A stretch of DNA of 64,000 nucleotides from Euglena gracilis (taxonomy: Eukaryota): contig CP154954.1 of the NCBI GenBank assembly GCA_039621445.1, positions 2,604,001-2,668,000 of the forward strand. The letters are read 5' to 3'. A program made the position numbers and the translations under genes. Shown piece by piece: positions 25,699 through 62,859 of this stretch. A model generated the notes under the pieces. That model was given only the letters and a program-made list of their open reading frames with translations, had not been told where the DNA came from and did no database searches. The number at the start of each line of letters is the position of its first letter. Position 1 is the first letter of the stretch.

Positions 25699-25818
25699 TG
25701 ATTCCTATTTCTGCCCTTCGACCTCAAGGAGAAAGAATTTCAACACTACGAGTGCGGTCAATACTGAAGACAAAGACATTCAAAAATCAAACACGTGTTC
25801 AACGGAATTCAATGAAAG

Positions 25819-29720: not shown

Positions 29721-29738
29721 CAAAGGGGGGTGCACAGT

Positions 29739-29840: not shown

Positions 29841-30063
29841 CCCAACCCTCCCACCCAAAAAATCAGCAGAAAAAGAAAGACATCCCAACCAGAAAGGGGA
29901 CCCCCGACCAAGCAGCCCCAACCACCCACCCAGGAACACACCAGAAAGAGACAACCATCACCATCGGAGGGGCGGGCCCCCACAAAGCGCCCAGGGAAGG
30001 GGGGGGGGGGGCGGGGCCACGACGGTTCAGCTTCGCCAAGGTGTCGGAGGAGGCCTCATCATC

Positions 30064-30165
30064 GCCAACTCCGGCAACAAAGGCGCAGTAAGAAGCACCC
30101 CCCGCGCACGCACAAACACAGAACAGAACAGCCGGCAAGGAAAGCAGGACCTCACCTCACCATCT
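30064..30165 (-). repeat. DIRS right inverted terminal repeat (right extension 30166-30225)
   Basis: Reverse complement of 25597-25698. Confidence 0.9.
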
Positions 30166-30225
30166 TCTTGTGCTTCGCCCTCTTGGTCCCTTCCTCCCCC
30201 TTCCTTTGTCGTGGGAGTCCGAGAC

Positions 30226-32087
30226 TTCAGCAACGCGTTCAACCGGGTCCGCCGTGATGCCTTATTGGAAGCGGCAAGAGAAAGATGCCCCGAAATGGTC
30301 ACGTGGCTGGAAACATGTTATGCAGAACACTCCAGTCTCTTCTTGGGGGATACTTGCCTCCGAAGTAAATCAGGGGTCCAGCAAGGGGATCCTTGTGGCC
30401 CCGCTGCTTTCGCCCTTCCCATTCAAGGACTGGTGGAAGAACTTCATTACGTATGTGGCTGGCAAGCCTGGTACCTGGACGACGCCCACATCGTGGGCAA
30501 CATGTGCCAGCTCGAGGCCGCGGTCCGAATGATCCTGGAAAAGGGCCCTCCGATCGGTGTGGCACTCAACCTGGACAAGTGCACGCTGTGGAGGCCGGCC
30601 TTCGGTACCGCATGGTCCTCCCTTCCAATGGGAGCAAGCATCCTCCAACAAATCCCGGTGACACCTTTTATCCCTGGCTCAGGAATGGGTGTCCCGGTGT
30701 GCCACCCAGCGGACGGCACCTTTGCTGAACACACCTGGTTTGGACGGTGCGAGGCTGCGATGAAAGCATGTTCCCTCCTACAGAGAGTGCCTTCCGCACA
30801 CGTTCAATTCACGATCCTTCGGATGTGCCTGGACGTATGCAAGGTGAATGACCTTCTGCAGGCAACCCCAGCCTCCTATGCTCAAGACCAATGTGCCTTG
30901 CTCAGCAAAACCGTGCGGAATACAATGAGCATTATCAGCGGACGACCACTGGAGGAACCACAATGGGTTCAAGCCACTCTCCCGGTTCGACTGGGGGGTT
31001 TGGGTATCCGCGACCCAGTTGTCGAGAGAGTGAACGCCAGATGGGCAGCAACTCTGGATTTCGTTATTCGAGGGGATCGGATCCTTGACCTCCCAGCCTT
31101 CTGCTCTGTTCCGCTACTCCCCATCGACTTCGCGGACACAGTAGGAGCCATCAAAGGAAGCTGCTCTTGGCCAACATCCGCTCAATCCTTCTGTGATGAC
31201 CCCCGTCGACACGAATTGTTGACGCCCGAGATGCTGACACAGCGCTTCTGGGGAAATGCTTGTGCTGAAGCACGACAGCAGAGGCTGCACGCCGCCTTGG
31301 AAGGGACGGAAAAATTGAAGTTCTCCTGCCAGATGAAGCCACACGCCATGGCATGGGCCTCAGTGACACCGTGTGCCTCGACCAAAACACTGATTCCCAC
31401 CAGAGAATTTCAGGCCATCGTCCAGTGGTCTCTGGGTGCCCTGCCCCGGTGGTCAGCGCTACAGACAGCCCACCTGCCTGCCCAAGATGCCACAACCCCA
31501 CAGATGTCAGAGGCCACCACCTTGTCTGCTGCCACAAAAACAACATTGTCCGGCGGCACAATGCGGTGCAATCGCACATCCTCGGGCTCGCGCAGCGTGC
31601 AGGCTTCCCAGCCAGAAGGGAAGAAAGTGCCCCAGATGGCTCACGACCAGGCGACGTATTCGTCATGAGGTACGATGCAAACGACCCGGCAGCCATCGAC
31701 GTCACCATTCGTCACCCGCTTGTCGCGCCTTCGCGAAATCGCGCTGGCTTGGAGGATATTGGCAGGTGGCATGAGGCACAGGAGCAGGACAAGATAAAGA
31801 AGTATGGAGATGGTTGCCAACGAAGAGGCTGGACATTAATTCCCTTTGTCTTGGACTGTTATGGTGGCATGGGGGATGGTGCGCTCACCTTTGTTGGTAA
31901 CTGCATCAAGCTGTTAGCAGGCCAACACGACGCCTGGGAGAGGAGGGGCGTCGAGGGGACCTGCTGGCAAGGAATAAGCATGACTCTGGCCCGGGAGGTT
32001 GGACGACAATTGGTTTGGGGACAATGCCCCGAAGAGCTCGCTGACCATAGCCTCCCTGAATCTCATAAACCCTACTGTACTTCATAG
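30226..32087 (+). pseudogene. CRE-1 RT C-terminal part, CCHC knuckle and restriction-like endonuclease (one frameshift ~31430-31470)
   Basis: FSNAFN, SGVQQGDPCGP, WYLDD, LNLDKC, QATLPVRLGGLGI; CPRC...HHLVC, RRHNAV, RPGDV...IDVTI, EQDKIKKY. Confidence 0.92.
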
Positions 32088-32626
32088 CTCCGAGGCAGCA
32101 CCACAACCAAACACCCGAAATCGAATACCAAAAGCCGAGAACTCTCTCCGGACGTCCACCATGGAGGTGCCGAAGTCACACACAATCGAAGGGGGTGGAA
32201 CCCCCGAGAGGGACCTCAAACCAAGTGCCAGCCAGGTCCACCATACAACTTCTTCAAGCGCACCTGAAATCCTGACTCGGACCTGGTGCTGTAGAAAACG
32301 AAGGGCCCGTCCACCCAATCCAGATCTCAAATACAGAAGGATGCGGCCCCAGTCGGTGGATAACTGTTGGGAAAGACACGCCTTGCTCTCGCAAGCTCGA
32401 CGACGCAGAGCTCAACGACCAATCAGAATTGCGGTGGTCGTGAACACTATTTCAAATCGCCTGTGCACCTGCAGCATGACGAGATCCTTTCGCTAAGCTC
32501 ACCCCTCTTACCTGCCCCCGCACCTCGCACAGACTCTTTCTTCTGTATTTAGCCTCACTCCCCTGAACTCGTCAAATCCAGTAGGCTGTGCCACTGGTCA
32601 TTCCCAATCGAGAAGTCTTTAGCCGT

Positions 32627-33605
32627 TGGGGTACCAAGTGACTACCCCGGCGACAGCACCGTCTCTGACATTACCTGGGCCAAGGCATCTGAAAAGTTCC
32701 AGGATACCATCTTGCGCCTCCAACAACTGCCGGACCCCCAACTGCAACCTGTATGCTACGCAACTGCTTGGACGGTTGTCGCGTGACACACCTTCTGCGT
32801 CAAATGAATATCTGCTCCGGTACACAGAGTGTGCAAATCATCTCAGATTCCATCCGGCACGCGGCCTGTGACATCGTGGGGGCACCCCTGTCTGCCTTAC
32901 ATTGGAACCAAATCACCTTGCCCTGCAACAAGACAGGGTGGGGTATCACAGACCCCCAGCTGGAGAGACCAGCTGCCCGTCTGGCTGCCTGCGTGGGTTT
33001 TTCCCAACGGGCGCCCAGCTTTAATATCCCTCCGCTCTGGCGCATGAACCCGCTACCGGACACCATCCCCGTGGCCAAATTAGCCCGTGATACTTTGGGC
33101 CCGCACAGCGAACCACTGGCCTCCTGGATCGCCAACCCTTCCTCCTTGGCCTCTTCCACCCCAGATCATTCCACTCAATCGTGGTGGGCCGAACGTTTCC
33201 ACGTCGTTCGCGTGGCAACCCTGGAGGAGGGTGCACCTCTTCGGGACATCGCCAGACTTCGCTGTCAGTCCTCTGCCTTCCTTCAGAATTGGATGATCGT
33301 CCTGCCGTCCAGGTCCGTGAACACTGTCCTAGCACCAGATGAATACAGACTGCTATTGCGCTTCTCGACCGGTTTACCCCTCATCCCAACAACAGATATA
33401 CTCTTGTACCCCTTGTGTGGTGAGGCGGTCGACCCCTTCGGAGACCACCTCCTGGATTGCAGAAGGAATGGCATAACCGAAAGACACAACTGCGTCCGCG
33501 ACGCCATCTTCGACCTCTGCCAACGCTCAGGCATCACCCTGCGCAAAGAACAGGGCTGTGAGACTGGCACCCGCGACGCTGATCTCCTCCTGCTGGGGTG
33601 GAACA
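32627..33605 (+). pseudogene. CRE family 2 fragment (post-RT region to start of RLE)
   Basis: GVP..YPGDS, LRNCLDGCRVTHLLR, QITLPC..GWGI, DPFGDHLLDC, ERHNCVRD, RDADLLL; homologous to the CRE-3 protein. Confidence 0.85.
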
Positions 33606-34689
33606 AATCCGGTGAGCCCCCGCCAGTCGGGGAATTAAATCTGGTCGCCCTGTTTTCCGCAGATTTTTTTGGATCATTGCCGCCAGGGTCACCTCGCTCG
33701 CCTTGCATGTCTCACTTTTTTTTGTGTGTCGGTTCGCAGACGCGGCAGAAAAAATAAAAACTTTTTTTTGACTTTTCCAATCCCGCATTTCTCTGTGCAA
33801 AAAAAAAGCCTCCAAACATCGAAAAAGGTTCCATCGCTGGACCCTTTTCCTGGGCCTTGACTGGCGTTTACTGGGCCCTGTGGCACCAAACTGGCCAAAC
33901 ATCCTGGCACCAAACTGGCCACCACTTGTGACACCCCCCCCCCCCCTCACCAAATTGGGTCACCTGTGACAGCCCCAAACTGGCCACTGGTGGACAATAA
34001 GTTGAGTGGAAAATTGGCAACCACCTCTCCACACAAACCACACACAAATGCCCACCACACACACGCCTCATTCAGATCCTTCCATAGGTGTAGAAGTGGG
34101 GGGTCGGGGGGGGGGGGGGTCGGCCGCCCCCCCCAAGATTTTGGAGAATTTTTTTTTGCAAATTGTGTAATTTACTCGCCACATTCTTTGTGTTTTTTCC
34201 TTCAATTTCTCAGACAAAGAACTCAACTTTTCATTGAACTTTTTGGCTTTTTTTGCTGTTGGACGTCGCTACCGTCTCGCCGCCCTTCGGGCGGCAAAAC
34301 AACTCCAGAACTCATGGGTCGGAGGGGGTGGGAATCTTTCTTTTTTCAATTTGGGTTGTTGTTTGCAAACATTTCCACTTTAACAAGAAACACATGTACC
34401 TCCACCCCCCCCCTTATTGTCCCACCGACCTGCCCCCGGGAGGCCCGACCGGACAATAAGGGGGGGACAATAAGACCGTACCAAAGGAATTTCATTGGCC
34501 GGGCCAAACCCCCCCCCCCCGTCGGCCGGGGCCGAGGGACAATAAGGGGGGGTATGTTGACTTGGCTTATAAAATTCAAAATCGAAAGCATACCATTTCT
34601 ATTAACAAGTTTTGCTCTTTTTGGGGAACCTTTTTGGGAAATGCATTACCGTCCAGCCGCCCTTCGGGTGGCAACTCTTTTTTTTGTTC

Positions 34690-34855
34690 AATCACCCCAT
34701 GGGGACCGGGAACTGGCATCCTGTGCCTTGGGGTACCGTGTGACTGCCCGAGCGACAGCACCTTCTCCGACATTAATTGGGCCAAGGCATCTGAATAATT
34801 TCAGGCTACCATCTCGTGCCTCCAACAACTGCCGGACCCCCAATTGCAACACTGT
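34690..34855 (+). pseudogene. Short CRE family 2 fragment
   Basis: ITPWGPGTGILCLGVPCDCPSDSTFSDINWAKASE; nucleotide match to 32627-32750. Confidence 0.75.
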
Positions 34856-35841
34856 TTGCTGTGTAATTGTCTGGACGGCTGATTCAATGCCAAAAAGTGC
34901 TACCGTCTCGCCGCCCTTTGGGCGGCCAAAAAAAAACAATGTCGTATTGGGCCTTGTCGAGGATCTCGCCCCCCTCCCGAGAAAAAATTACTTCTACACC
35001 CCTGGATCCTTCCCAAATGATACACGACATCACCAGAACAAATTCCCAGTCAAAAAACATTTCGTTGCAAAATGGTCTTTGCTGGCCCAGGGCCTTTTCA
35101 GGCCACTGGTGCAAAATCTTTTACACACAGGAAATTCGAGAGACACATTTGCAAAACACAACAATGCAGCAGAAAAAAAAAGGCGCTATGTTAATTGCAA
35201 TGCGGCAGTTACAAAACATTTTTTTACCTGCCTTCCTTGTCCTCGCAATTCATCAGAATTCGCCTGCTTCTCTGTTCTTCAGCTTCTCTCAATTCATCTG
35301 ATGAAAATACATGCAACATAAAATACCCACAGAAAGAGGAAAACGTAAACAGGCTTTGCAGAACGTTGTACTAGAAAACCATGTGATGCCACAGATGCAT
35401 GCCACAGACATTTGATGTAACACCCACACACTTTTCCTAAAAATTCATTTTCCCAGGCTAACAGTGGAAAATCAACACAGCCGACTTTCACTGGAAATGA
35501 GCAATTCAGCAGAACAAACGACAGGATCATACCTTCAACTGTAAAGTTTTTATCTTTAATTTGAGCATTGCTACTTCTTCCCATGAACTTTACTGCCTGC
35601 AGCCTTGGGAGCCCTGGAGAGGGGGAAAAAATCATTTGATTAGTAAGGGACATGAACCTATCTGTGTTGAACTTCTTCATCAGCTTTGATCAATTCTTGC
35701 CCCGCTTCAGGCTTCGCCTTCTTATCAATGCCAAACACTTTTTCATCGGTTTTTGACCAGGTGTGCAACTGTGGAGGGAAGGTAAAAGGACGCGTATACT
35801 TTCGCTATTTCAGGTAAGTAATACTCGGGGGAATTAATTCC

Positions 35842-36760
35842 GTGCGCCAGAGTGGAGGGATATTGAAGCCGGGCGCCCGTTGGGGAAAACCCAGTCAGGC
35901 AGCCAGACGGACGGCTGGCCTTTCCAGCTGGGGGCCTGTGATACCCCATCCCCTCTTGTTGCAAGGAAAGGTAATTTGGTTCCAATGCAAGACGTTCCTT
36001 CAAAATTGGATGACCGTCCTACCGTCCAGGTCCGTAAACACTGTCCTGGCACCGGATGAAATACAGGCTGCTATTGCGCTTCTGGACCGGTTTGCCCCTG
36101 ATCCCAACAACATATATGCTTTTGTGCCCCTTGTGTGCTGAGGCGGTCGATCCCTTCGGTGACCACCTCCTGGCTTGCAGAAGGAATGGCATAACTGAAA
36201 GACATAATTGCGTACGCGACGCCATCTTTGACCTCTGCCAACGCTCAGGCATCACCCTGCGCAAAGAACAGGGCTGTGAGGCTGGCACCGCGACGCTGAT
36301 CTCCTCCTCCTCGGGTGGAACGAAGGGAAGCACCTTGCTGTGGATGTCACCATCGAACACCCGCTGGCTCCTTCACGTTGGCCTCTGAATTTGACCCGAG
36401 TTCAGCGTACTCTACCGGATGCTGAAATGCGCAAACGATCCCAGGCTGAAGATCGGTGCGCCCGTCACCAATGGGAGTACATTGGGGTGGCCTTCAACCC
36501 ATGGGGGTGTACCGGGCCAGCAGCCTCCAAACTCCTATGTGATGTCCTGCGCCTCGCGACCAACTCTTACTCTGGAACTGCCAAACAACGCAAGTTTCAA
36601 GAACTGACTGAAAACCTGGCCATCTCGCTAGCCCGTGCTGTACAACAGCAGTTGCGGTTGGCCGAAAGGGCCACGGACCGCATGATTCTGAACTCGAAAG
36701 GACACGCCCCCGCCACAACACCTGCACCACCTCCCGGTTCCCTTTCAAAGCCCCGGGGTG
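35842..36760 (+). mobile_element. CRE family 2 copy with inverted 5' segment (35842-35992 antisense; 35995-36760 sense, RLE end)
   Basis: 35842-35992 is the reverse complement of ~32894-33044; 35995+ matches 33277+ and continues VDVTIEHP...AEMRK...PWGCTG...LAISLARAVQQQL. Confidence 0.85.
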
Positions 36761-43865: not shown

Positions 43866-44315
43866 CAAGGCTGCATAGAGGTAGAGGGATAGAGGTAGAG
43901 GTAGAGGTAGAGGTAGAGGTAGAGGTAGAGGTAGAGGTTTTCCAACCTCCTCTATCCCTCTATGTCACCTCTATGTCAAAAACCAAAGGAAAATGGCCTT
44001 GATAAAGGAATTTTTTTGCAAGCAAAGGGGAAATGCATGAAAAGCTTCAGAATTGTTCAATGTGGTCACATAACTGCACCAATAAATTTCAAAACCACCA
44101 ACCCACATATTGTTTCTCATCCCCTCGCCGTTTTGTATGTGTTTTCATGCATAATTGCCATTTTCCGAGCATATGGGGTGTTTTATGACCCCATTTGAGG
44201 CCATTTTGGTCCATTTTAAGGACATAGAGGTGACATAGAGGTAGAGGTAGAGGTAGAGGTGGTTGACATAGAGGTAGAGGCCTTTGACCTCTACCTCTAC
44301 CTCTATGCAGCCCTG
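43866..44315. mobile_element. hAT-type MITE with (AGAGGT)n subterminal repeats, nested in an older CCAATTAG-motif element (~43592-44420)
   Basis: TIR caaggctgcatagaggtagagg / cctctacctctatgcagccctg; exact 8-bp TSD cctattgg (43858-43865, 44316-44323). Confidence 0.88.
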
Positions 44316-45193
44316 CCTATTGGGCTAACCCCCCCCCCCCAATTGGCTGATGGACCTCCCTTAAGGACCCCCCAATTAGCCAATTAGGGGGGGGGCCAAT
44401 TAGGGGGGGGGTGAGGGTAACAATGGACAAAAAAGGGCTCAAATTTTGTGTGAAATGGTTTCAAGCGACTAAAAATTGCTCAAAGTAACTCCTCTTGTAG
44501 AATTCAAAAGATAATTCAAAATGCCGATGTACTTGAGCAAATTTCTTCCGAAACATACATTTGCCACTCATGCCACCCAAAATTGTGTATTGTCCACCCG
44601 AAAATAGGAGTTTTCACCAAATTTACCCAGAATTAGGCATTTCCCAACCCAAATTTGGACACCCCCCCCCAAATTTTGGCATTTCCCGTTAAAAATTAAG
44701 AACCTTTTTGTCAATTAGGAATTTGCCACCCAAAATTGGGCACTGGCACACCAAATTTCAGTACTTTTACACCCGAAATTGGGCAATTGCCACACAAACA
44801 CGGTGGTGGGGCGAACCGAATCCACCGACCAGTGGCACAGCCTACTGGGTTTGTATGTTCGAGGGGCGGGGGCTATGTACAGATGGGCCGGGCCCATGGC
44901 GGTGAGTGCAAACCCTCGCGCGGGTGGGTGGGAAGGCAGGAAAGGGAGGCGGCGGGCTGTGTGTGAGGGAGGGGCTATGTACAAATGGCCCGGGCTGGCC
45001 AGCAGTCAAAACGGAATAACCAGGTGGCAGGTGCGATGAGGGCGAGGTACTTCATTCAGCTTGTGCCGGTGTCAGTGCCGGGGACATGCAGCGCGACTAT
45101 GGGCTTGGCTTCGTGGTGGCCGGTGCCCTTGTCCGCCGGAGATGCGGCGAGAGGCGTGCTCCGTTTGGTGAGGTGTGAGGCGGCTTGGCGTTG

Positions 45194-48100
45194 TTAGCAC
45201 AAGATATGTTTCGGGCGCAGCATCTGCACAATTTGTCGGAAGAGAGCCAGCGCCAGCAGTTGGTAGCTCTCAGCTTGACGGGAGGAGCGGATGTCGCCTT
45301 GGTCCCAAGAGGTTGTGCGCTTGACCATTCTGGTCAGTAGGGTTGCACTTTCTGGCCCCAAGCCGCCCCAAGTGCCCATCGCCAGTGTTGCGAAGGACCA
45401 TCCTCCGTTTCTACAGGGGATGTCATACTTGGCATGTTTGGCAGTCTCCTTCCTTTTGAGGAACGTCCTCCAACGTTCCCGAGTCGCAAGTCTTTCGGCG
45501 GTTTGCCATCCGTGGGCGATGGTGATGTCAACCGCAGTAGGCTTTCCATCTTGCCAGGTGGCTAGCAGCAAATCTGCCGGCCGCAGAGAGCTGTCCAGTT
45601 GATTCGGGACCGGGACCTCGCGCTGCACACTTTGACCGTTCGTTGACAGGAGATTGAACAGAGCGTCCTGAACGGCGTTGTGTCGATTCGCAAAGTTGTT
45701 GCGAATGCATCAGAGATCGTGGTCCCCGTGTTCGTCGGCAGTGGCCTGGCACCCGGCACAGGTGGAGGGAGTGTCCGCCAGTGGAAGTCCCAGCCACCAT
45801 TTCAGTCCCAGTCGGTAATCCGCCGGGTCGATGACGGTGTGCAGTGCTTCGAGCGGAGGTACCGCCATCCAGCCATGGCCCACGCCATTGACCTGTTCCA
45901 TCAACCGTGCCTGATCCCGTGGGGCTGACTTCTCAACCAGGGCATCCACAATGGCTTTCGATGATTCTTTTTGCCACCACCGTTGGGAAGTGTCGCTGCC
46001 GGATGCGCTCGCGAAGGCAGCAGGGTTTGTCAGGCGGCTGCTTTCCGGGTGACGGGCCCCAAGCGTTGAGCACAGATCGTGGGCGGCTTGTTGGCACATG
46101 CGATCGTCCCGTGCCGCGGCGTAGTCGGGGCACGCAACTTTCTTATGACCGTGCGTATGAAATTGGCACAGCGCTGCGGCACGCGCTGCTCCTTGATGGA
46201 ATGCTGGGATGCGGAGGCCACAGCCACCCAGGGAGAGCGGTATAGCGCCGCTTGGAGCCGCTGGTCCGAGCCCAGGGCCTGCCCCAAGATGTCCTCGAAG
46301 GCACCGAAGATGATTTCGCCGCAGCGAGTGACTTCACGCTGCGCTTGGTAGGAGTCCGAGGCGCGCAGGAGGTGGTTCACACGGCAGCCGTCCAGGCAGT
46401 TCCGCAAGAGGTGGTGTGCCAGCTGAGGATCGGCGACAGAGGTAACGAGGTCCGCAGCTTGCTCAATCCTCTCCATCGCTTCAGCCCAGGTGGCGCTGGT
46501 GTGGTCCGTGGAGGCGGGGAAGTCGACTGGGCTGCCTAGGACCGTGATTCCTGACCCCTCACACCAGGGTACTGTTCGCAACTGCTCCCGGTCGGGGAGG
46601 CCGCCCGAGGCCGGCCCCCAGAGGACGCACTTTGCCAGGTTCAGCTGCACCCCTGTGCGTGTACTCTCGCTGCGTAGGAAGTCGAGGCACTTCTGAAGGA
46701 CCGCTGGCTCCCCAACAAGGATGCCGTCGTCCAGGTACCAGCAAGACCACAACAGTTCCGCTTGGGTGCTGATAGCTTCCGCAATGGATTGGAGACCCAC
46801 CGCGAAGCCAATCGGTCCAAGGGGGCAGCCTTGGTGCGTGCCTCTGGTGGACGGCAAAATGCGGCCGTCGCTGAAGAGGGGAGCCGGTTGACCGTACGCA
46901 AACCGCAAGTAATTGAAGAGCGCGGGTGTGCGTGCTTCGGCCTCCCGCAGCAGGACCCCCCTGTCTAGGGAGTTGAAGGCGTTAGCCAGGTCCACTTGAA
47001 GGACCGCCCAATTCCCTTGGGGGCTCAGCTTCCTGATCAGGTTCTGGGTTGCCAGGGCGACGGCCTCAGCTGCATTGGAGACCCCCACACCTACCTGCAG
47101 CGGGCTCAGCTTGCCAACCTGATCTTTGGCGGCCCCAGTGTGCAGTAGCGCCTTGCCCACGAGGCGGCGAATGGTGTCACCCACAGCGATCGGACGTACG
47201 TCGTCATCCTTCTTCCGCAAGGGCGTAAGGTTGGCGGCGCACCACCAGGGCGCATGCTCCGTGGGGAGTAAGCCGTCCACCCAGGAGGTGGTGAGTTTTC
47301 CCAGTGCCGTGAGCAATCTGGCTCCATGGCCTGGTCTGCGGACCGCGTCTTGGAGGTGGCATGGACGTAACCCCGATGGGCCAGGCGATGAGGTCCGAGG
47401 GAACCTCAGGATGGCTTCCCGCAGGAGCTCTTCCCACCGAACTTGCTGGCCGTCAGGAAAAGGGGGTAGTCTTCGTGAGATGGTGTCCAGATTCACGGTT
47501 TGCCTTCAGGGTGCAGCGCCTGCAGTTTGGCCCAGACAGCCGGGTCGCTGGAGCGGTGTGTCCCTTCGGTCAGGAGGACTTGAAGGGCCTTCGCTGGGGC
47601 CCCTTCGCCAACCAGTGTCCGTGCCTGCCGAAGCGTAGCGTCTGGGATGGCAGCTGGCTCGGTGCGAGCCTTTTTCGCCGCGCGGGTCTCTACGGCTACC
47701 GGTGGCAGTTTGGTGGAGTTCTGCAGTTCACTCCAAAGGGTGGTGTAATCCCCTTGCCTGAACAGCGTGACCTGCCGCCTGATCGCAGAGGAAATGTCTT
47801 CCGGCGCTTCTCTCCCCCCGCTGGGGACGGTTCGTAGGACCAATTTGGGGAAAGCCAACACTGCGAACAGGGTGTCCGCCGTTGGCCTTCCGACATATTC
47901 CAGCAAGACGTCGGACAGGGTCTCAGATACATCCCGTTGATTCGCAGCCGGCACGTGGAGCACTGTTTTTGCACGGCTTAACAGGATGTCCTGTATAGCG
48001 ACCGGCGCTGGGGGCACAATGATGCGCGGCAGAACGACGGGCCGCTGGTTATTGTTATTGCCGCCGGGGTCGATGATCATGGTGCCCGGGGTGTCGTCCG

Positions 48101-48473
48101 CAGGGTGAGCGAGGTCAGTGGTTTTTTCTGGTGCCGAGTTAGCCCTCGGGCTGGGCGGTGCTGCTGAACGCTTCCGACCGCCGGCCGGGGCTTGTTTCCC
48201 CTGGGGGGGACCGGGGTTGCTCTCAACGTCGCCACATGACAGGAGACTGCCGCGCCCGGTCAAGCCGAAGCCCCGTGTGTGTTCCGAGGCGCCCGGTCTG
48301 GTTGGCATCCACGTCGCGCATGGGGCGGGTGGACAGTGGGCTGGCCGCTTTGGGTGGATTGGAGAATCCACCAATGCCCATTTACCGCAGCCACCAGGAC
48401 GGTCTTGACGAATGCCGGCCCTGGCGGCTCCACCATGTCGGTGTGAGCTGATATTCGGACTCGGCGACCTCAA
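45194..48473 (-). pseudogene. CRE-3 polyprotein: 2A motif, N-terminal region, RT, CCHC knuckle, RLE (several frameshifts, one in-frame stop)
   Basis: SSPGPSGLRPCHL, VRPIAVGDTIRRL, LQVDLANAFN, GTHQGCPLGP, WYLDDG, LNLAKC, GITVLGSP; CAGC...GDHDL*C, RHNAVQD, LRPADLL...VDITI, ETAKHAKY. Confidence 0.92.
48207..48260 (-). other. 2A-like ribosomal stop-go peptide (TGRGSLLSCGDVESNPG|P)
   Basis: Full DxExNPGP consensus; 15/18 identical to Thosea asigna virus T2A (EGRGSLLTCGDVEENPGP); in frame with the downstream CRE-3 ORF. Confidence 0.9.
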
Positions 48474-48525
48474 AAACCCCCCTGGGGGGCCTCGGCTCGG
48501 GGGCCATATCAGTGGGCTGTTGACG

Positions 48526-48905
48526 GGTCATTTTTGCGAAGAAGTTGTAATGGGCCGGAGCTGGGCCAGCAAATGGTTCCCGTACTACGGGACGGGGAGT
48601 TTCGGCATTGTCCTTTCTGGCCTCCCGCCGCATTTCGGCGCCGTTAGCCGGAGGAACCGCTTTTTTTTTCCGGGTCCGCCGCCCTCGAAAACCTCCCTTT
48701 GTGGCAGATGAGCGCTCCGCCGGGTGTCATTGTGAAGAAACTGTGATGGCCGCTGCCGGGGGGCAGTTGTTCCCGTGTGCCACGGAACCTGAAAATTCGG
48801 TCTGACCTTTTCCGGCCTCCCGCCGCAGGCGGCGGGCCGAGGTCCGCGTTTTCGGGTCCGCCGCCCTCGAAAACCCCCGTGGTGGACATCTGAGCGGGCT
48901 CCGCC
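48526..48905 (-). repeat. Two diverged ~190-bp tandem repeats at the CRE-3 5' end
   Basis: Shared blocks gaagaa.(c/t)tgt.atgg, ttcccgt, ggcctcccgccgca, cgggtccgccgccctcgaaaac, tgagcg..ctccgcc in 48526-48720 and 48721-48905. Confidence 0.7.
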
Positions 48906-49744
48906 CGATGGACAGGGCCGTTGGCTGGTATCAAAATGGCGCAGTAGCCAAGCATTTTACCAGCCACTTGAAAAAAGCCACTGGCCAGCCCCCCCCCCCC
49001 CCCGGGAGGGGTTTCGGGGGCCCCCAATGGGAAAAAACCGCCCAACGCCGCGCGCCGAGGCGGAAACGAGGGTTTTAATGTGTTTGCATGATTCTGTTCC
49101 ACAAGAATCCCAAAAATTGCCAAAAATGGGCATCTTCGGCAGGTTCTGGGGGTCCATAAAATTTTTCAGCGCTTTGTGCCGGTCTGGAACAATTTTTCAC
49201 AAGCCAGCCCCCCCGGGGGGGGGGGCAGTTGGATTCCCTGGAAAACTTTGGAGCAACCCCTCCCCCAAATGTGAGCAACCGGTTGCTTATATTTGGGTTT
49301 ACGAGATCAGCTCCAGGGGTTGCTTTCATTTGGGGGTTGCATAAATTTAAAATTTGCTGATCTGTGCCGTGCTTTTTTTTTGCTGTTTTGATTTAAACCA
49401 CCTTCATATCATCCGGGCAGGGGTTGCTGATATTTGGGGGTTGCTTATATTTGGGTGTCGGCCGAAAATCGGCCAAAGAGTTGCTTAAATTTGGAGGTTT
49501 CTGGTAGCAGGGGGTTGCTTGTATTGGGGGGGGGGGTGCAGTCAAGCCCCTCCCCCCGGGGGGTACTACTAACCCCAAGCAGAATCCTGGTCTGGAAAGG
49601 GGCTCATTTGACTGCCTTTCAGAGAGAGACTCGGGCAAGTTGATGGCAGGACGACGGTGTGGGTCGGGGGATGGGATGGGATGGCAGCAAGGATACAATT
49701 CAGCCGGGCAAGCCCTAACTTTGCTGCCCGTCTCCGATCGCAGC

Positions 49745-52053
49745 CTGGGCCAGGTCGCCGATGTACGGCAGGCCAAAGGAGAGTGTTTCCCGGTGGTGGG
49801 CTGCGTGGGGGGCGATGGGAAGGGAAGCGCAATGATAATGTGGGTGGGGGGCATCTCCTCGAAGACCACCTGAAAACCTGAATGACAGCTTTAATCTCAG
49901 AGACAAGTTGTTTCATTACCATGGATGAAACATTGAGGAAAAGGAGAAGGGGGGCACAGCAGGGCTCGATACAATGGCAGGTGGGGGGTCCGGACCCCCC
50001 ACCCGTGCCAACCCCAAGGGGGACACTCCCACCTAAACACAGGAAGAGGGCCATTTTGGCCTGGTGGGAAGCTGCGGGCCAAAAAATTTTGCCTCCCAAA
50101 GTCGACCCAAAATGCCATTTTAGGCACTTTTGGGGGGCAAAAACTTGACAAATTTTGCCCAACGATTTCAGCACAAACTCATGGAAGGAAATTTTCGACC
50201 TGTTTGGGGGAGGTCCTGGGCTGGAACCTCCTTGGGAGGTATGGGGGGTCAAGGAGGGAGGGGAGCTCCACCTCTAACTGTGACACCCTCTTGACATCAA
50301 ACCCTGGGCAGCGTGCTTTTCAGCAGAGAAATCCACTGCAAACACATGCAAATACAGACACACCAGAGAACAGCGCGTCGTTGTTATGATGGATGGAGAC
50401 TGTGGTGCGGTCTGCAAGGGTCCAGCGAAATGCCACAGGCGAAGGAGGGCCCTGTCAGCTCTGCTCCCTCATACAAAAATGTTCCAGGAAAAGATCAGGG
50501 TCCAGTTGCTTTGTGGGCTGTCCACTCTCCAATGCCCCCACCCCCAATGCCACACCAGAAGTGACACCAACCAAGTACCGACCTTGGCCAACCGCAGGCG
50601 CACACAAGCTCATACAACATACAAAAATAGATACATACGCATGCCATTCTGCATCAGACAAGAAGTTTCCGCACAGCTTTTGCGGTGGATGAAGAGGAGG
50701 CTCCAGCAGGCCCTGCGGAAGCTCCATTACCCACCCTGTTGTGCGGAGGCTGCAGGTACCCAGGCTCAATGGAGGTTTCGCGGAGCCTCGGTATTCATCA
50801 CAGGATGATAATAATAAAAATATGTATTTCACTCTACTTGTAAAAAATCACCCCCTGTGGGTTTTGCCAGATAACCCAAAGAGTAGTCAATCAACTTGTG
50901 GGGATCCTCATAACTTGCGGATTCCCCCCATATTTTTAGCCGGATGGGGCGACCCTTTGGGCTTGCTGAGTACCCTGCACAGGCGTAACAGACGGCCATG
51001 GGGGAAGGGCTCAATGAAACCCGAACCAAATACCGTTCAATATCCAAAAAATACTCCCCGTTGGGAAATCACAAAAAAAAACGCACAGGTCCTGAACAAA
51101 ATTTGAGGCCTGGAGGAAGTTCATGAGACTCCACGGAGGCTCCAAATGTCCATGGAGGCTCCACGGGTGAAATGTCCAGCTACCAAATTTGCTGGGGCCA
51201 ACAGAGGCTGCCCTTGGGTGGCGCTCCTTCGGGCACCGTCCCCACTGCGGGCTCCCAGTCGGTGAGGAACATCTCGAACCGCTCGTACACGTCGTCCGGG
51301 AGGTCGGCCCCAGCACTGATCTTCCCCACCCCCAAGCGGTCCGAGGGAGAGTGCTGATCACCCAAAAATGGCCGGGTGCCCATTCGCCAAAGAACGGGGA
51401 AAGTGCGATTGACACGGGGGGTGTGAAATGGACACGCTGTGTCATGCGCACTAAACGCCTATAAAACATTTTGAGGTCAGGAAAAGTGCGGTTGGCACAG
51501 GTGTGTCATGGACAAGGCGTGTCAAGGACAAGGGGGGGAGGCAGCTGGGCAGGATTTGACATAAACCCTTCCAAAATCCGGGGGGGGGGGGGCAGGGTTT
51601 AAAATGGCGGCATTTTTGGTTGGGGCAAGGCGTGTCAAGGACAGGGGGGGGGTACCCGGGCATGTTTGACATAAACCCGGGAGGGGGGGCTCCGGGGGGG
51701 GGGGGGTAGGGTTTAACAACCCCTTAAAGTGGCGCATTTTTGTGGGGGCAGGAAAACAAGCCATTCCAGCGACAAAAGAAAAAACCTGACAGGCGGGGGG
51801 ACGAGCGGGGCTGGGTGGAGCGGTACCCACAGCTCCCGGTCCTGGCGCAGGTTGATGATGACGTCGTAGTCCATGAAGACGTAGTAGAGGTAGCCCCCCT
51901 GCGGCATCCGCACCGACCGCCGCATGGCCTCGTCCAACAGCCGGTTCCGGCCCTGCCACCAAATGGGAAAGGAACACACACACACCACGCGCGCGCGCCG
52001 CGCGCGCGCGCACGCACGCACTCACGCACGCACACAGCAGGCACGCACGCGCC

Positions 52054-52129
<76 letters not shown>

Positions 52130-52603
52130 CCCACGCACGCACTCACTCACGCACACACACGCACCGCACACACACACACACACACACACATGGGTGCATG
52201 CGCACACAAACCGATTCCCACCCTACCTAAGCCTCGGGTCTTTTGGGGTGGGGGTTGCTGCAAACCTCCAGGGCGGTCGTTTGGGGGGGGGGGTCACAGG
52301 TGAAATGATTCTGTTGAACAGTAATGCTGAAACAGACCCAGATGCTCTGCTGCATCCCCAGAGCAGCAAACACTGTCCCCTCCCCCAAGGTCAGGGAAGG
52401 TGCAGGACTCCCCCTTGGATTACCACAATCCCCATACAGGGGCCACGCCTGCGTCCAGGTGGACTTGGGCAGGTAGATGTCCCCGGACCGGTCGGCGTAC
52501 GTCAGCCAAATGATGTCGCGCTGAGGGCTGGGGGAGATCGGGGGGTGCATGGGCTGCACCTTGGGGCCCTGGATCAGGTAGACGAACTTCTTGGGCGGCT
52601 CGT
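49745..52603 (-). CDS. Multi-exon host gene, putative GT-A-fold (DxD) glycosyltransferase-like protein; exons 52603-52449, 51952-51827, 51353-51237, 50451-50364, 49800-49745
   Basis: Phase-consistent splicing with AG acceptors and GT/GC donors gives FVYLIQG...DIIWLTY...PKSTWTQ|GRNRLL...[11 protein letters not shown]...[14 protein letters not shown]|...[21 protein letters not shown]. Family assignment is from motif recall only; 3' exons not found. Confidence 0.7.
51975..52190. repeat. (CA)n/(CGCA)n intronic microsatellite
   Basis: Direct reading. Confidence 0.9.
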
Positions 52604-53535
52604 CTGGGGAGAGAAAGAGCCTTCCGCCTCTTTCACAGCACGCCTGTGGAATCCTGGAAACCTTCATTTGTCAAAATGGTTTGGCGGTCTGAAAGAGCTG
52701 TCCATCTTTGTCTTGATGCTTAAACTTTCCAATAATTTAGCAGAACACTTATTCCTCAATACCCTGGGGATGCGGGCGGGCCTTTGTCCATGTTGATTGA
52801 AACGGTCTATTGTGGATTGAAAAAAACACGGGGTAAAAAAAGAGGGAATGCTGATTAAGAGAATCACAAAAAAAATCCAAACCTGGCTTCTTCTTCTTTT
52901 CTAACCTTGGTCGCCTCCTCCAATGGCAAGCCCGCCAAGAGCCCCCTTCCGGAATGAGGGATTGGCTTTTTGTCCTGGCTGGGGCCGACCCAGCTGAAAC
53001 GGTCATTTTTTTTTTGTCATTTTTTTTTTGTTTTTGTTTCGGGCCGCCCAGTGCCGTCCCATCAGCGGCTGGGAGGGAGGTGCTGTGCATCAAGTGCAGA
53101 GGGTAATGCTGGGGCACTGCCCACCAAGACCTGACCCTGGGAGCCCCCCCCCCCTGCCTGCCTGCCTTTCCCTCCTTAATGAAAAAAAAAATCTGGTTCA
53201 TCGCTCCTTCTCATTCGGGCATTTTTTTCAGGAGCGATAAAATAAAATCCAATGTGCAATCAAATAGAATTCCTTTGCTTGTGATTGCCCCCCCTCTACC
53301 TACTGCTCTTTTCCTCAAATATTCCTCACGATGGCGACAAATTGTGCAGAATGGAAGGCCAAGTTACTGCAACCATTTCTGTTGGTTCGATTTCTGACTT
53401 GGGGAACCGGGGAGAGGAAGGAGCAAACCAGGTTCTTCCATCCAGCGCGATGTGTTAAATGAACCCTGTGGCAGTAGCCAGAGGCAAGGGCATGTTTCAG
53501 CTGAGAAGGAGGAGCGTTCGCACACACAGACACAG

Positions 53536-53616
53536 CACAACACAACACAACACAACACAACACAACACAACACAACACAACACAACACAACACAACACAA
53601 CACAACACAACACAAC
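53536..53616. repeat. (CACAA)n microsatellite
   Basis: About 16 perfect units. Confidence 0.95.
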
Positions 53617-53950
53617 ACACACACATATGCACACACACACTGCACCCAAACATACCACATACTCATGACACGGAGAGGGGCTACCGTACCCAGGGGTTCC
53701 CACATTTGGGGTCCCAGAGCACCCATCCAGACTCCTTCAAAATTTGCAGGCTTTATGACATCCGCATGTTTTTTTCACACCCGTAGACACTAATCCGGCC
53801 GACGCACTCGAATACCTATCCCGGGGAACATAATGGGAACCCACAACCGGTTTCCAGCTTCAGGGACAAATGACAAATGACCGCTTCTTACAGGACCAGG
53901 TGACCATATGCATTGGGGGTTGCATGCACGGATTTGAACCGGTGAAGCAC

Positions 53951-56900
53951 CCCCTTGGCACGGGCGGGGCAGCAGCTGCCGGTCGAACCGACACGGCTGC
54001 TGCCCGCCGTGCAGGACGCAGCGGCGCAGGGCCGGGTCCGCCGGGGCGAAGGAGAGGGGCAGCTCCGGGTCGTTGAAGGGATGAGCCCCGAGGCCCCTCT
54101 CTCCCCCACGACGCCCACCACACCCGGGGGGGGGATGGCAAAATGCTGTCGTGGTCTCCCATGCTCTCCTGCCAATAACGTGAAAGAGTGAGCAAAAGAA
54201 TGGTATGCGGCAGGACGGGCCCACACAAGGCACAGTTGGACACGTCGAACCTGAAAACACACACACAAACACATACGGACACACACACACACAGGCACAA
54301 CAGGAACAACACAGCAGAAGCAGGTGCACACAAAGAGAAGAAAACACAGCAACCAGAGGGCCCCCCGGCACATTGGTACAATACTGGCAGGGCCGGCGCG
54401 CAGTCCCCGGCTGGTCCGCAGGTCTGGTTCCAGTGACCCGCCACGTCAAACACGCCGACCGTGTCCGCCTGGCCCCACTTCAGGGCGAAGTACGGCCGCC
54501 CCCCTTGCTGCCGCGCCGCGTGCTGCCCGCGCCGCTGAGGAGAGGAATGGGGTGCCCGGGGACAAAGAAGGCAAACTGGTGGTGGTGGTCGGAGTCCGCC
54601 CTGGACGCCGCCTCTTTCGGGCAGGCAACCCGCCTTGAAATGTTTCCAGCAGGGTTTGAGGGAGGAGTGCAACGATGCCACTGCTCAGCCGATGCCATGG
54701 CCCTCCCATTCCATGTTCGGGGGTCAGCTCCTGATCAAAGAAATCACGGCCAGAGCTATTTATTTTGGCAGCCCGAAACTACTGGGCCCCCCTGGGGGGG
54801 CCCAGAACTTAATCTGGGGGGGGGGGGTCATCTTCGTTAACCCCCCGGTCCATCTTCTTTTAACCCTCCCCTGTCTGCTGTCGCGCGGGGGGGCCGGGGG
54901 AATCCGTTAGTGTTGGTCGCCCCACGCCTTTCTTCTGGGGTCGCTGGCTGCGGCGACGCGCGCGGGTGGATGGCCCACTGCAGGCTGGATAGAGGGAGGT
55001 AGAGGTCAAAGTCCTCCTCCACCCCTATCTGGCCTCCACCTCTACCTCTACCTCTATCCCTTTACCTCTATCCAGCCCTGCCCACGGGCAACCGCGGGCG
55101 GGCCGACGGGGGCGAGCAGCAGGGGGCAGACAACGGATGGAGACCGACAGACGGACAGGACAGACACAAGGACGTGGCGACAAGCAGGGCAGGGTGGGGG
55201 GGGGGGGGCGGGGGGGAAAGGAAGACCCCTGCCCCGGAGGAACGGGGCAGGAGGGGGGGGGTCCCTCTTCTTTTACCCCCACCCCGGGGGGGTCCACCTT
55301 CTTTCAGGCGGGGGGGGTCTGACTACCCCCCCCCCGGATTAAGTACTGGGCCCCCGGGGGGGGGGGGCAGTAGTTTCGGGCTGCCATTTATTTCTCCCTC
55401 CTTGTTTGGCCTGGAAAGGGCTGAGGCACCCTTGCCATCGACACTGAACGGCCGCTTCGCCCACCCCTCATGCGCGGAAACCCCTTCTTTGGTCACCAAT
55501 GGCTTCGTTCCGCTTCAGATGTGTCGTGCAAACCTGTGCTCTTCGAAAGCCAAGCAAGCTATATGAAAGCTCATCAGCCTGGCATTTGTGGGGCCATCGG
55601 GGGGTGTGGGCAGGGGAACAGATTCTTGAGCAACCTTCCAATGACGCCGCCTCACGCAGCCCCGCTGGGGGGGGGACACACCGGGGGTGGCCAACGACCA
55701 GCTGGGGCCCTCCTCGTCGGGGAGGAGCCGGACGGCGGGGACCGTCCGCAGCCACAGCCCGGCGCGGCTGAGGCGCACCAAGTAGTCCGCCCCAGGCCGC
55801 GGGCGACCTTCTGGGGGGGCCGGGGCGGGGGGGGCTGTGCTCATGGCGCGGGGAAGGTTGGGGGGGGGGGCGGGGGGCAAACACGGTCTGGCCGGGGCCC
55901 TCCTGGGATGCCGGGTAGAAGTTGGGGTCGAACCGGCCAACCCGGGCCACCGCGGGCTGCAGCAGGGCGAAGCAGCGCGGCGGCGAGCGGTCCTTTGGGA
56001 ACGGGCGGCGTTCCCGTGTCTCACTGGGCCGAGGCGTGCGTGTCAGGGAACAAAGAGTCGGAGGGCACAAAGACAAACAAAAAAGCAACAAAGACTGCAC
56101 TGTAACGCATTTGGGGGGCGAACCTGGCCGTGCAGGCAGCTTTTGTGCTCATCAGGCTTTGCTCAAAGACCCCAGGTGTCCGCTACGTAGCCATTTCACC
56201 GGCCACAAGAAAAAAGCCGCTAGCTAGACCCCCCCCTCCTCCCTGCGGGGTCTCGGGGTCCCCCCAACTGGGCGAGTGGGGCACGTCTGGGGTGAAAATT
56301 TTTTTCAGCGCTCTGCAGTCACTGGGGAAAAAACTCCATTATCTTGCCCAACTAGCAGCCCCCTCCCCTGGCAAACTTGGACCACTAATTTCCACTCGCA
56401 AATTTCGACTAACGGCAATGGCGGGTGCTCATCCCAGAATTCGCTCATTCACTTTGGAGGAAAGGAAAAAATGCACCCCCCAAAAAATTTCCCTTGTGGA
56501 AAAAATCTGGGCGTGGAGGCTTGCTGTAAGTTAGCCCTGGAGGACCAAATGATGTGGAGGCAGGGTTCGATATAAGGACAGGTGGGGGGGTCCGGACACC
56601 CCCCCCTGCGGGCCAGGAGGGGGGGGACACCCCCCCCCCACCTAAACAGTGGCGCGGTCCGGGTGACCGATTTTCGGCCCGGCGCAAAGCGCCGGGCCAA
56701 AAATTTGACATCCAGCGAAATCAAAGCGCAAGCAGCACATATGTTTTTCAGCAGGTCAATGGCAGAAAGTACCAAAAACTCCGGCGCGAAGCGCCGGAGG
56801 AAAAAATTGACCCTTTTTGGGGGAGTCCCGGTTACCCCCCCCCGGGGTCGGTCCGGACCCCCCTGGCAAGTGGGGGGGGGGGGTGGTCCAGACCCCCCCC

Positions 56901-59536: not shown

Positions 59537-59947
<411 letters not shown>

Positions 59948-62859
59948 ATGTATGTATATATACGCATACATATATATATGTACATATCCCAAAGTAAGTG
60001 AATTCTCAGTTTCATCTTTTTGGGGTGCTCAAATAGCACATGTGTTTGAATGCGTGCATTATAATGGAGAATGACGAAGGGGAGTTTGAGTGATGCTGAG
60101 CCAGAAGCTGGGTTGGTGCTTTTGAACAATTCAGGCACTGGGGAGGCAGTGGCTGTTCCAATAAGGCGAGTCATGGGCGGTAGGCTGTGGAGCCTCAGTG
60201 ACGTTGAAACTGACATTTTTTGAGATTTTGGTCCCATTTTTGGGATTAAATCTGAGAATATTAAGAAATTTATACCAGAATACAAAAATGGAACCCCCTG
60301 GTGTGTTAGAGGAAAGAGGATCAACTGCCCCCTCCTTTGTCAGACCGCCACCCCTGGTCGTTGACTGCAGGTTTCATGAATTTCATTTTTGTGTTGTTCC
60401 CCTTGTTGAACAGAAAGAGGAATTTTGCAAAGAAAAAAGATGTGCATTATGTTTGGGGCATTTCAAGGTTGGACACAAAATAATCCCACTCGCAACCCCA
60501 ACGCCCTGGGTCGGCAAAAAGGTCAATTTTTTGTCTTTTTGAAAAATGCATCATTTTTTCAAAAATTTTGGAAACAAAATGTTTGCTATTTTTGGCCTTG
60601 TTCGCTTGAACTTGCAATGGCCCCGAGGTCACCACTTCAAACAACCACTTTTTCCCTGCCATTCAATTCGAAAAAGACCATGGAGGGTTGTGGGTCGGAC
60701 ACCCCTGTCACCCCTGTCACCAATTGGGTCGGGAATTCTTTTAGCCCTAAACGCCCTCCCCCAAATAATATGGCACTGCAGCACTATTGGACGGCTGCCT
60801 CCGGCGGCAGGGGGTGCAGCACCATTTGGACCCTTCCGTACTATTGGACTAGATGCCTCTTAGTCCCGGCTAAACACTACAGGCACCCTCTTTTTGCCCA
60901 CTCAATGTCCGACTCTGAGGCTAGCAAGGTGCACTCGGGTGCCCCCAGCCTGTCGGATTGGGGGGTGCACTATTGGACGCTCGCTTCATCCGGCGGGGGG
61001 TGCAGCACTATCTGGCCCCAAATGGCAGTACAACCTGTTCCCCTTACATGGCCACATGGGAAACCATGATTTGGCCCCAAAACTGGAAACCGATCGGGGG
61101 TTCCCATGGTGTTCCCCGGGAAAGCTATTTTGATGTGCCGGTCGGATTAGTGCCTATGGGTCAGAAAAACATGCGGTTGTCAGAAAACTATCCAGGTATC
61201 GACAGTTTTGGAGGGGTGGAAGAGGGCCCCAAATGGCCCACCGGGATATTTGGCATTTCACAATTTTTTGGGGCTCAAAAAGGGCCCAAAATTGGCTTAA
61301 AAATGGCCATGTCTCGGGCTAGGCGGAGAGTTATAAGAAAACCAAAATACAATTTGATGAGGTTTTTAAGTTTTTCTTTTGATGTTTCAATTTTTTTTTG
61401 ATTTGCTTCATTTTTGAGAAATGCCATCTCGCAATATTTTGGGACCAAAAGCGGCCCAAAATGTTCGAAAAACGCTATTTCTTGGGGCAGGCGGGGAGGC
61501 AAGAACAGCAATGTACAGGCGTGTGATGGGTTCTTTTGATTCCCCATCATTTCTTAAAGATGTGGATCAATCATTTTTTTGGCCCAAAAATAGTTGGCAA
61601 AGTCGGAAACCTGCAAAAAAGACGCTGTTTTGGGGTGTAAATTGGCCATACCTTGGGTTTAACTAGAATATGGAGAACATGATAACTGCATTTGAAATTT
61701 GTGACTTTTTTGATGAAATCTATTGTTCACAATTTTCATTGTTCACAAAAAAAGGAAGGGGAAATAAAAGAAATGGAAAAGGTGGGAAAATGGAAAAAGG
61801 AAAAATGAAAGAGGGGAATAAAATATCGTCTGAATATTCCACATTTTCAAGTGAATGCAACTTTTGCATTCTCTTGAGGATGTTGTATTCCCCTCTTTCA
61901 TTTTTTTATTTTTATTTTCTCATTTACTCTTTATCTATTTTTTATGTGATTATTGTATTATATTATTGCATTTTTTACATGCCTTTAATTTCAAACGTGC
62001 TGTGCATTCAAACAATTTCTCGGTGCTTTGGTTTTGGCAAAGGTGTCGTCAAATGTCATTTTGAGCAACTCACAACTGACAAAACAATGGAAGAGCAGCC
62101 AACCATGATTTGTATATAATTCATTGGAAATCCAACCAAATGTTTGGATTTTTTTTAGCAAATGGAATGACCTACTCCCCCAACATAAATCACCCTATAT
62201 GAATACTAATTGTGTGTCTAGCCTGATTTACGCCGATTCCACTGGGCCATTCCAATGTAAAACAGGGTCTATCTGCCAGCAACAAAAAGAAATTTCAAGC
62301 TGTGCCGAGTCATCAAATGGGCTCAGTATAATAGAATTCAAGCCCCTGCAATGCCCCATCTAACGATACCTGGTTTTTCTGGTAACTCGATGGCAAGCTC
62401 AAATTGCAGACTGAAATTGAGGCCCTTAAGGCATCCAAATGGAACGGTATTTGACTTCCCCGTGACTCCACAGCTTGCCTGGGTGATGACCATTTCAAGG
62501 AGCTCTGAGCTGATGGCACCATCAATCAGGGAAAGAGCTCAGCACTGCACAAAACTTGGTGAATTATTGGTTCAGCACATGGTGTGGTCATAGTGGCCCA
62601 CTGCCTAGGAAGGTGATCTACCAGGGCCATATTTTCTTTACCTTACAGAAAACAAGCATTCACTTTGTTCATTGGTGAGCAGACTCGTCGCTAGCAAAAC
62701 TAGAAATTTCTTGCGATGCGAGCACCCTGGAACAATATTTTTTGTAGCCTGTTGTACTACAGCAGATTTCTGGGGATGTCTGGGACGCCGGGGGGGGGGG
62801 GGTGGGGGGGGGGGCTGGGGGGGGGGGGGATGCGGGCGAGACGCCATTTTTGGGACAGT

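Follow-up and report, generated by a model that had tools for sequence, protein, structure and literature searches.

A T2A-like StopGo peptide at the N-terminus of a decayed RLE-type LINE from Euglena gracilis and its conservation in one clade of relatives

The window, a stretch of 64,000 nucleotides from Euglena gracilis (contig CP154954.1, positions 2,604,001 to 2,668,000), carries on its minus strand what is very likely a decayed copy of a high-copy LINE of the restriction-like endonuclease (RLE) type, whose T2A-like peptide is a functional part of its clade and would release an upstream product by StopGo. The element extends over ~45155-48473, as judged by tblastn coverage with 273 related proteins, and the repeats upstream of it, to ~49050, probably belong to the element too. 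The order along the minus strand is a leader, the 2A peptide, a 238-aa region free of cysteine, the reverse transcriptase (RT) frame, the CCHC frame and a 171-aa nuclease piece.

Read from the ATG at 48308, the minus strand encodes MPTRPGASEHTRGFGLTGRGSLLSCGDVESNPGP, and the frame is open down to 47496, in frame with the N-terminal region as the earlier note had it. The 2A peptide, TGRGSLLSCGDVESNPG followed by proline, occupies 48207..48260 (minus strand). It ends in DVESNPGP (48230-48207), the NPGP codons lying at 48218-48207, and the break is predicted between Gly (48212-48210) and Pro (48209-48207). This C-terminal end agrees with the class A motif, which is defined as D(V/I)ExNPGP with the break in front of the last proline (10.64898/2026.09.24.754024; PMC3708506). 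Comparison residue by residue confirms the identity claimed earlier: 15 of the 18 residues equal those of the T2A string, which is assigned to Thosea asigna virus (bioRxiv 10.1101/2021.03.10.434623). NPGP occurs once in all six frames of the window, where chance alone predicts it 3-4 times. The chance expectation for D[VI]ExNPGP is ~2e-4, and when the window was simulated 300 times with a first-order Markov model, the motif never arose. The 2A motif of the window is far beyond chance; T2A identity and the family consensus given below complete the assignment. The peptide is in frame with the downstream protein, reaching 238 codons into a conserved N-terminal domain, and in intact relatives its frame continues through RT and RLE. 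Its position N-terminal to the RT protein is therefore as first described.

The Pro-started N-terminal region (47496..48209, minus strand) begins with a linker of ~65 aa modelled at low confidence, which gives way to a conserved helical domain. AF2 modelled the 238 aa past the 2A at a mean pLDDT of 80.1, with values of 56-65 in residues 1-40 and 51-60, 77 in residues 41-50, and 90-98 in most of residues 61-160 (85-98); residues 151-160 stand at 97 and residues 161-170 at 85. The helical domain found no fold match in the PDB (best E 0.83). The RT frame of 491 codons follows at 46030..47505 (minus strand). It contains a Pfam RVT_1 match at ~47217-46618, corresponding to residues 97-296 of the frame (2.2e-14), and has 84 relatives, the best with 56% identity. 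The CCHC knuckle, C-x2-C-x9-H-x3-C, lies at 45707..45760 (minus strand) and is split by an in-frame TGA at 45712-45710. This motif is present in 53 of the 84 scanned proteins and in 21 of the 22 relatives belonging to the window's tree clade. The restriction-like endonuclease domain of 171 aa (45197..45709, minus strand), recognised by conserved residues, AF2 and Foldseek, has its RPAD at 45583-45572, D61 at 45529-45527 and K91 at 45439-45437, and the ORF ends with TAA at 45196-45194. Residues E31, A45, D46 and D61 of the domain are invariant, and R43, P44 and K91 are nearly so.

A profile made from 32 full-length relatives matched R2 proteins of solved structure (2.8e-32 and 4.9e-32). The alignment runs unbroken from the RT to the C-terminal end (profile 222-948 of 972; chain 408-1155 of 1169), whereas the same profile matched LINE-1 ORF2p in the RT part only, at ~2e-13. 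A PDB search with the single sequence P0001 gave weak RT matches only. The last 171 aa of the window copy were modelled by AF2 with a mean pLDDT of 90.8, and a Foldseek search of the PDB with this predicted nuclease fold placed R2 retrotransposon proteins in the top 7 positions (best E 4.5e-5, TM 0.55), with PD-(D/E)xK enzymes, namely cap-snatching and restriction endonucleases, ranking next. The element also has the CCHC and RPAD...D.T motifs. No APE domain (Exo_endo_phos) appeared in Pfam scans of the window's four ORF pieces and 14 relatives. The two motifs, the R2 profile match at ~3e-32 and the R2-like predicted fold of the last 171 aa thus support an RLE-type (R2-like) non-LTR retrotransposon, the type that had been proposed in the earlier note.

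The founding members of the CRE clade insert into spliced-leader RNA genes, and N-terminal zinc-finger DNA-binding motifs belong to the CRE and R2 clades. Elements filed under CRE need not all share the spliced-leader target. We lean slightly toward placing the present element among the RLE-type elements outside CRE, in NeSL/Utopia, HERO, R4, R2 or an undescribed RLE clade. No cysteine occurs in the 238 aa that separate the 2A from the RT frame, so that an N-terminal zinc finger, of Cys or His, is absent; some distant relatives lacking the 2A have an N-terminal Cys/His motif. The dinoflagellate spliced-leader motif had 0 matches in the window and no Rfam family reached its gathering score anywhere in it, so the window offers neither a spliced-leader gene nor any Rfam RNA. 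The match to R2 is good, R2 being the sole source of reference RLE proteins compared. The family is also high in copy number and resides in a repeat-rich region without a recognisable target gene. On the other side stands the earlier label 'CRE-3', which may reflect a similarity to a Repbase element. Five RLE clades are listed in PMC4640811.

The copy in the window is broken at three places, by two frameshifts and one in-frame TGA. At the first frameshift (47493..47496, minus strand) the 2A frame stops at a tga (47495-47493) and the RT lies in another frame; the sequence at 47495/47496 reads KP-tga, then NLDTISRR in the other frame. The second frameshift, from the RT frame to the CCHC/RLE frame, is located at 46230..46250 (~46241, minus strand) by the overlap of the frames 46030..47505 and 45710..46333 and by tblastn, in which the matching pieces change frame at 46243. 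The TGA at 45712-45710 occupies the first-Cys position of the relatives' GDHxxCC. The single frameshift to the RT that was described before is the one at 47495/47496; the lesion at ~46241 and the TGA at 45712-45710 had gone unmentioned. Since two frameshifts and one stop interrupt the frame, the window copy cannot make the protein, and the earlier proposal that it releases a Pro-started RT-RLE protein fails for this dead copy. A reading of the TGA at 45712-45710 as Cys, under a Euplotid-type code, was rejected, since the standard code leaves the other long frames open and a single TGY-to-TGA change suffices to explain the stop.

Other copies in the host have the frames in order. At least half of the element's sampled words were found in 20 of 24 listed public runs from 15 studies; no RNA run is listed as containing them. 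Copies were collected from the Logan contigs of four runs (X1-X4) at >=80% likeness to the window, which gave 345-1067 matching contigs per run, most of them <90% alike. Contig depth is here the sum over everything >=80% alike and does not express copy number. By this depth, an extra letter past 47495 is present in 76.8 of 76.8, 939 of 1177, 50.8 of 60 and 67.8 of 67.8 in X1 to X4, respectively. Two letters are missing at 46241 in 121 of 157 (X1), 103 of 120 (X3) and 47 of 62 (X4), and in run X2 the length difference is seen in just 1773 of 5890. Frame arithmetic with these lengths joins the 2A, RT and nuclease frames into one register. In intact members the whole is one ORF. Most other copies have 48227 C>T, with depths of 295/335, 4306/5003, 262/284 and 66.5/70.9 in the four runs, together with 48225 A>G. 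The Val to Ile change that results gives D-I-E-S-NPGP, and the canonical 2A is kept. The summed depth drops from the 3' part to the 5' part of the element, in X1 from 1703 (45626-45744) to 61 (47887-48005), which fits 5' truncation of copies. The element family is high-copy and dispersed.

The leader (48210..48308, minus strand), which spans the first ATG up to the glycine in front of the break, is 33 aa long if translation starts at 48308. The leader of this length given in the earlier note holds from that ATG and is a lower bound of the full length, as the frame stays open upstream for 73 codons devoid of ATG (48309..48527, minus strand; ORF 47493..48527, stop at 48528-48530). The relative P0147 has a 76-aa leader without Met. 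Its residues 1-28 match window positions 48473-48402 with 79-82% identity, and the whole 81-aa leader plus 2A is 54% identical to the window. The element thus reaches past the ATG into the upstream sequence.

Three degenerate direct repeats of ~190-215 bp lie at 48341..49050 (minus strand) and contain two families, D2 at 48452, 48667 and 48849, and D4 at 48582 and 48777. This region is a candidate for the element's 5' leader or for a set of monomers within it. In other copies 48341-48480 plus 4 letters make up a 144-bp tandem unit, as contigs of all four runs link 48480 to 48341 across those 4 letters, and contig depth is high at 48363-48481 and 48601-48700. At 144 bp the unit is 48 codons long and has no stop in the 2A frame of the window copy; we speculate that translation could run through the 144-bp monomers.

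Several other repeats were observed in the window. Positions 1-~15000 form a tandem satellite array with a unit of ~163 bp in ~80 copies, 60-98% alike. An intact frame of 1548 codons at 25611-30257 (plus strand), with RNase H and tyrosine-recombinase (Phage_integrase) matches, is DIRS-like. Two pieces of another diverged RLE-type LINE, with ~30% amino acid identity to the 2A family, are found at 25157-25639 and 30094-32075 (plus strand), and the DIRS-like frame looks nested inside this LINE. More diverged RLE-type LINE fragments, none with a 2A, lie at 32580-33748, 34553-34933 and 35877-36693 (plus strand) and may be 5'-truncated. Past the stop of the element, at 44221-44305 and 44560-44800, there are a (TAGAGG)n microsatellite, which occurs in either orientation, and short repeats in which CCAAAATTTGGG-like words abound. 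Simple repeats of (CGCA)n/(CA)n type and an 8-bp tandem array occupy 51990-52220 and 59587-59955, the two stretches being partly mutually inverted. Pfam scans of 18 other long ORFs in the window gave nothing in 15, and the three with matches are other retroelements. Atlas neighbours are mostly labelled diatom for the RT and chordate, sponge or cnidarian for the DIRS-like ORF, labels too weak to point to a host.

Almost all relatives are gene models from metagenome or run assemblies called in the prokaryote style, so that their N-termini and full length are uncertain. Among the 84 long RT relatives, NPGP occurs in 15 and a strict 2A in 13. The RT tree of 85 rows was obtained by an IQ-TREE quick search with SH-aLRT supports only. 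It places the window in a clade of 13 rows (SH-aLRT 99), 10 of them with the 2A. This clade is nested in a 23-row clade (SH-aLRT 97) containing 13 rows with the 2A, and P0047 is an additional 2A row close to it. A strict 2A was found in 0 of the 54 rows in the other half of the tree. The 2A label requires 8 changes on the RT tree against a mean of 13.2 after shuffling, and 0 of 500 shuffles were as low. The 10 rows of the 23-row clade without a 2A are uninformative because their gene models begin within the N-terminal domain or a short way ahead of it.

With the 344-aa N-terminal frame as query, phmmer yielded 200 proteins at E<=1e-3. NPGP is present in 33 of 145 new proteins among the matches listed, and several models start inside the motif. 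At least 25 aa are available upstream of the Pro-equivalent in 76 proteins; a 2A is found there in 36 and is missing from 40. The presence of the 2A upstream in just 36 of these 76 informative relatives, together with its absence from the 54 wider RLE rows, counts against a 2A common to all relatives.

Strict sites were found in 46 of 273 proteins, 19 of which have two to five. Alignment of the 77 unique sites leads to the consensus T-G-R-G-x-x-L-L-[TS]-C-G-D-[VI]-E-x-NPGP, and 63 of these sites show the canonical GD[VI]ExNPGP. Leu is found at -12 in 61 sites and at -11 in 54, Cys at -9 in 59, and GRG in 56. The family sites thus show the leucine stretch that is described upstream of the motif in class A 2A peptides (Rao 2025), whose total length is ~18-22 aa. 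The 14 residues before NPGP have 48.5% pairwise identity, while the 18-aa flanks have 7.5% and 7.4% (73 sites). From these sequence comparisons, the 2A is a conserved feature of one clade and not of all RLE relatives. Conservation of the motif in the family, which the earlier note had marked as a point to be checked, is thus found within the clade and in frame, by the tree, the 77 sites and the host copies.

The relatives have up to five 2A sites per protein, P0188 having five in 587 aa. Of 14 long relatives scanned, 10 gave a partial Dam match (PF05869), placed upstream of the 2A in front of the N-terminal domain; six of these matches are above the Pfam cut-off and four below. The Dam segment lies between two 2A sites in P0002, P0004, P0011, P0090, P0109 and P0188; in P0005, P0007, P0173 and P0088 it comes ahead of the first 2A that the gene model contains. 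Clustering of the upstream modules is confounded by their common 2A tails. Leader-only forms recur in the clade (P0001, P0087, P0099 and P0105) with the canonical motif kept. In the window, tblastn of 59 upstream segments against 48400-54000 found neither Dam nor another module upstream, and only the P0147 leader matched.

The Dam-bearing relatives bear on another explanation, by which the peptide would be a vestige. The ancestor would have been a Dam-2A-RT-RLE polyprotein, the lineage of the window would have lost the module, and the leftover leader and 2A would have no role or would dampen expression. We regard this as unlikely. The nearest RT relatives do include Dam-bearing, multi-2A forms (P0002, P0003 and P0007), the window has no upstream Dam or other module, and many retrotransposon 2A-like peptides have been tied to reduced abundance (10.64898/2026.06.17.732966). 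However, the leader-only members of the clade retain the canonical motif, and the host copies keep D[VI]ExNPGP with the conservative Val/Ile change. Moreover, a neutral stretch of 18 aa would not hold 48.5% identity beside flanks of 7.5%.

The same order of 2A, N-terminal domain, RT, CCHC and RLE in one ORF occurs in many independent ENA, JGI and Logan contigs, and the order from 2A to RLE is found again in contigs of four independent host runs. These observations make it extremely improbable that a fragment of an RNA virus, or an assembly chimera, was fused to the retrotransposon and that the motif is foreign to the element. The peptide is indeed closest to the 2A of an insect RNA virus (T2A). 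A metagenome motif search also returned 6 loci, 4 of which look like something outside the 2A-LINE family. Among the 6, L001 is a clear RT relative with a 2A, the ORF of L003 has a family-like GGRGSILTCGDVESNPGP site without an RT match in Pfam, and L006 has a GRG-type site. Yet no viral domain was found in Pfam scans of the window ORFs and the relatives, and the IMG/VR scan found no relative.

If the 2A is a functional part of the clade, as we prefer to read it, a ribosome arriving at the NPGP would free the upstream product after the glycine and resume from the proline. What is released would be a short leader lacking any fixed start codon or, in relatives, one to four additional modules bounded by 2A sites, among which a Dam-like methyltransferase is common. 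The RT-RLE protein would gain a defined N-terminus, whatever the translation start, and StopGo would allow several products to be made from a single ORF. The 2A has been functional in all eukaryotic cells tested (PMC3894237), and we infer from its sequence that the 2A of the window would have skipping activity. Its purpose may be module separation, a defined N-terminus or dosage control. The translational control proposed for the 2A is conceivable, and module separation is more obvious in the relatives. Most of the retrotransposon 2A-like peptides tested in one preprint lowered protein abundance and gave no clean skipping (10.64898/2026.06.17.732966). Because abundance was reduced by those peptides, the effect of the 2A could be dosage control rather than separation.

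A broader model is proposed tentatively, with doubt and belief in near balance and doubt slightly ahead. This RLE-only LINE clade would act as a StopGo polyprotein having no fixed start, maybe with in-frame 144-bp monomers, and up to five sites would free modules, commonly Dam-like, the last product being the Pro-started RT-nuclease. If so, it would be the first described use of 2A in RLE-only elements and the first Dam-carrying LINE, and acquisition of 2A would turn out to be independent of the APE-type, ORF1-less condition suggested in 2013. The multi-2A, Dam-carrying relatives would be natural polycistronic cassettes, from which many divergent T2A-like peptides could be drawn. According to PMC13580325, translation of R2 protein does not require a Met start and its mechanism is not yet known, and how translation of RLE-type proteins such as R2p starts is unsolved. 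A StopGo N-terminus makes this question testable in the present family.

2A-like sequences have been reported in L1Tc/Ingi of trypanosomes and in Rex1, Crack, L2, L2A and CR1 of marine animals (Heras 2006; Odon 2013, PMC3708506). In the available text of Odon 2013 and its commentary, the clades with a 2A are Rex1, Crack, L2, L2A, CR1 and Ingi, all of APE type, in agreement with what the earlier note had stated, and REL-endo clades appear as background only. The 2A in retrotransposons was linked there to the loss of ORF1 (PMC3708506). Our literature search, a step that the earlier note had recommended, found no 2A in RLE-only elements, only in APE-type elements and Dualen/RandI; recent bulk surveys may contain the family, possibly in the supplementary tables of Rao 2025 and the 2026 preprints. 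In one such survey, RT elements account for 330 of the 1547 contigs with a class A 2A, ~79% of these 330 being non-LTR-like, with the clades unnamed in the available text (10.64898/2026.09.24.754024). Eukaryotic 2As were reported in TSAR and Haptista, mostly near the N-terminus and with at most 3 per eukaryotic gene (Rao 2025). A conserved 2A in an RLE lineage extends the phenomenon from APE-type elements to an 'ancient' architecture, and its occurrence in an RLE-type clade therefore points to repeated acquisition or to transfer of the peptide between element types.

The present element resembles the APE-type 2A elements in having a class A D(V/I)ExNPGP near the N-terminus of a single long RT-bearing ORF; many of those elements have a short leader as well. 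They differ in that the APE-type elements carry an N-terminal APE, whereas the window element has a C-terminal CCHC and PD-(D/E)xK nuclease and no APE. Unlike the APE-type elements, the clade of the window often has 2-5 sites per protein, which delimit extra modules, and its peptide is T2A-like over 17-18 residues (GRGxLL[ST]CGD[VI]E). The family consensus shares GRG-LL-CGDVE-NPGP with the T2A of Thosea asigna virus, in keeping with the near identity of the window peptide. T2A, however, separates a viral polyprotein of an insect RNA virus, while the window peptide resides in a chromosomal retrotransposon.

With R2 proteins (solved structures 9nl3, 9dou, 8gh6 and 8ibw) the element shares RT, linker, CCHC and C-terminal restriction-like endonuclease. 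R2 is located in 28S rDNA and has N-terminal zinc-finger/Myb domains (PMC13580325), in contrast to the Cys-free helical N-terminal domain and the dispersed, high-copy state of the window element. The available passages of PMC13580325 make no mention of a 2A in R2.

ORF2p-like proteins with a 2A have been described in Dualen/RandI of Haematococcus and in a Symbiodinium ORF2p with an OTU domain (10.64898/2026.06.17.732966). Like the window element and its relatives, these are protist or algal LINE proteins with a 2A and captured N-terminal accessory domains. They are ORF2p-like and mostly of APE type, Dualen having both APE and RLE, and the accessory domains are deubiquitinases and PPR, as opposed to Dam in the relatives of the window element. 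The available part of that preprint does not mention an RLE-only architecture.

The DAM-DIRS and DAM-LTR retrotransposons carry a prokaryote-like Dam adenine methyltransferase (10.64898/2026.05.21.726589). In the available text of that work, neither a Dam-bearing LINE nor a 2A appears, with 0 occurrences of '2A peptide', 'NPGP' or 'DAM-LINE'. The elements described there are DIRS and Ty3-like LTR retrotransposons, whereas here the Dam-like module is delimited by 2A sites in relatives of an RLE-type LINE, and is missing from the window copy itself.
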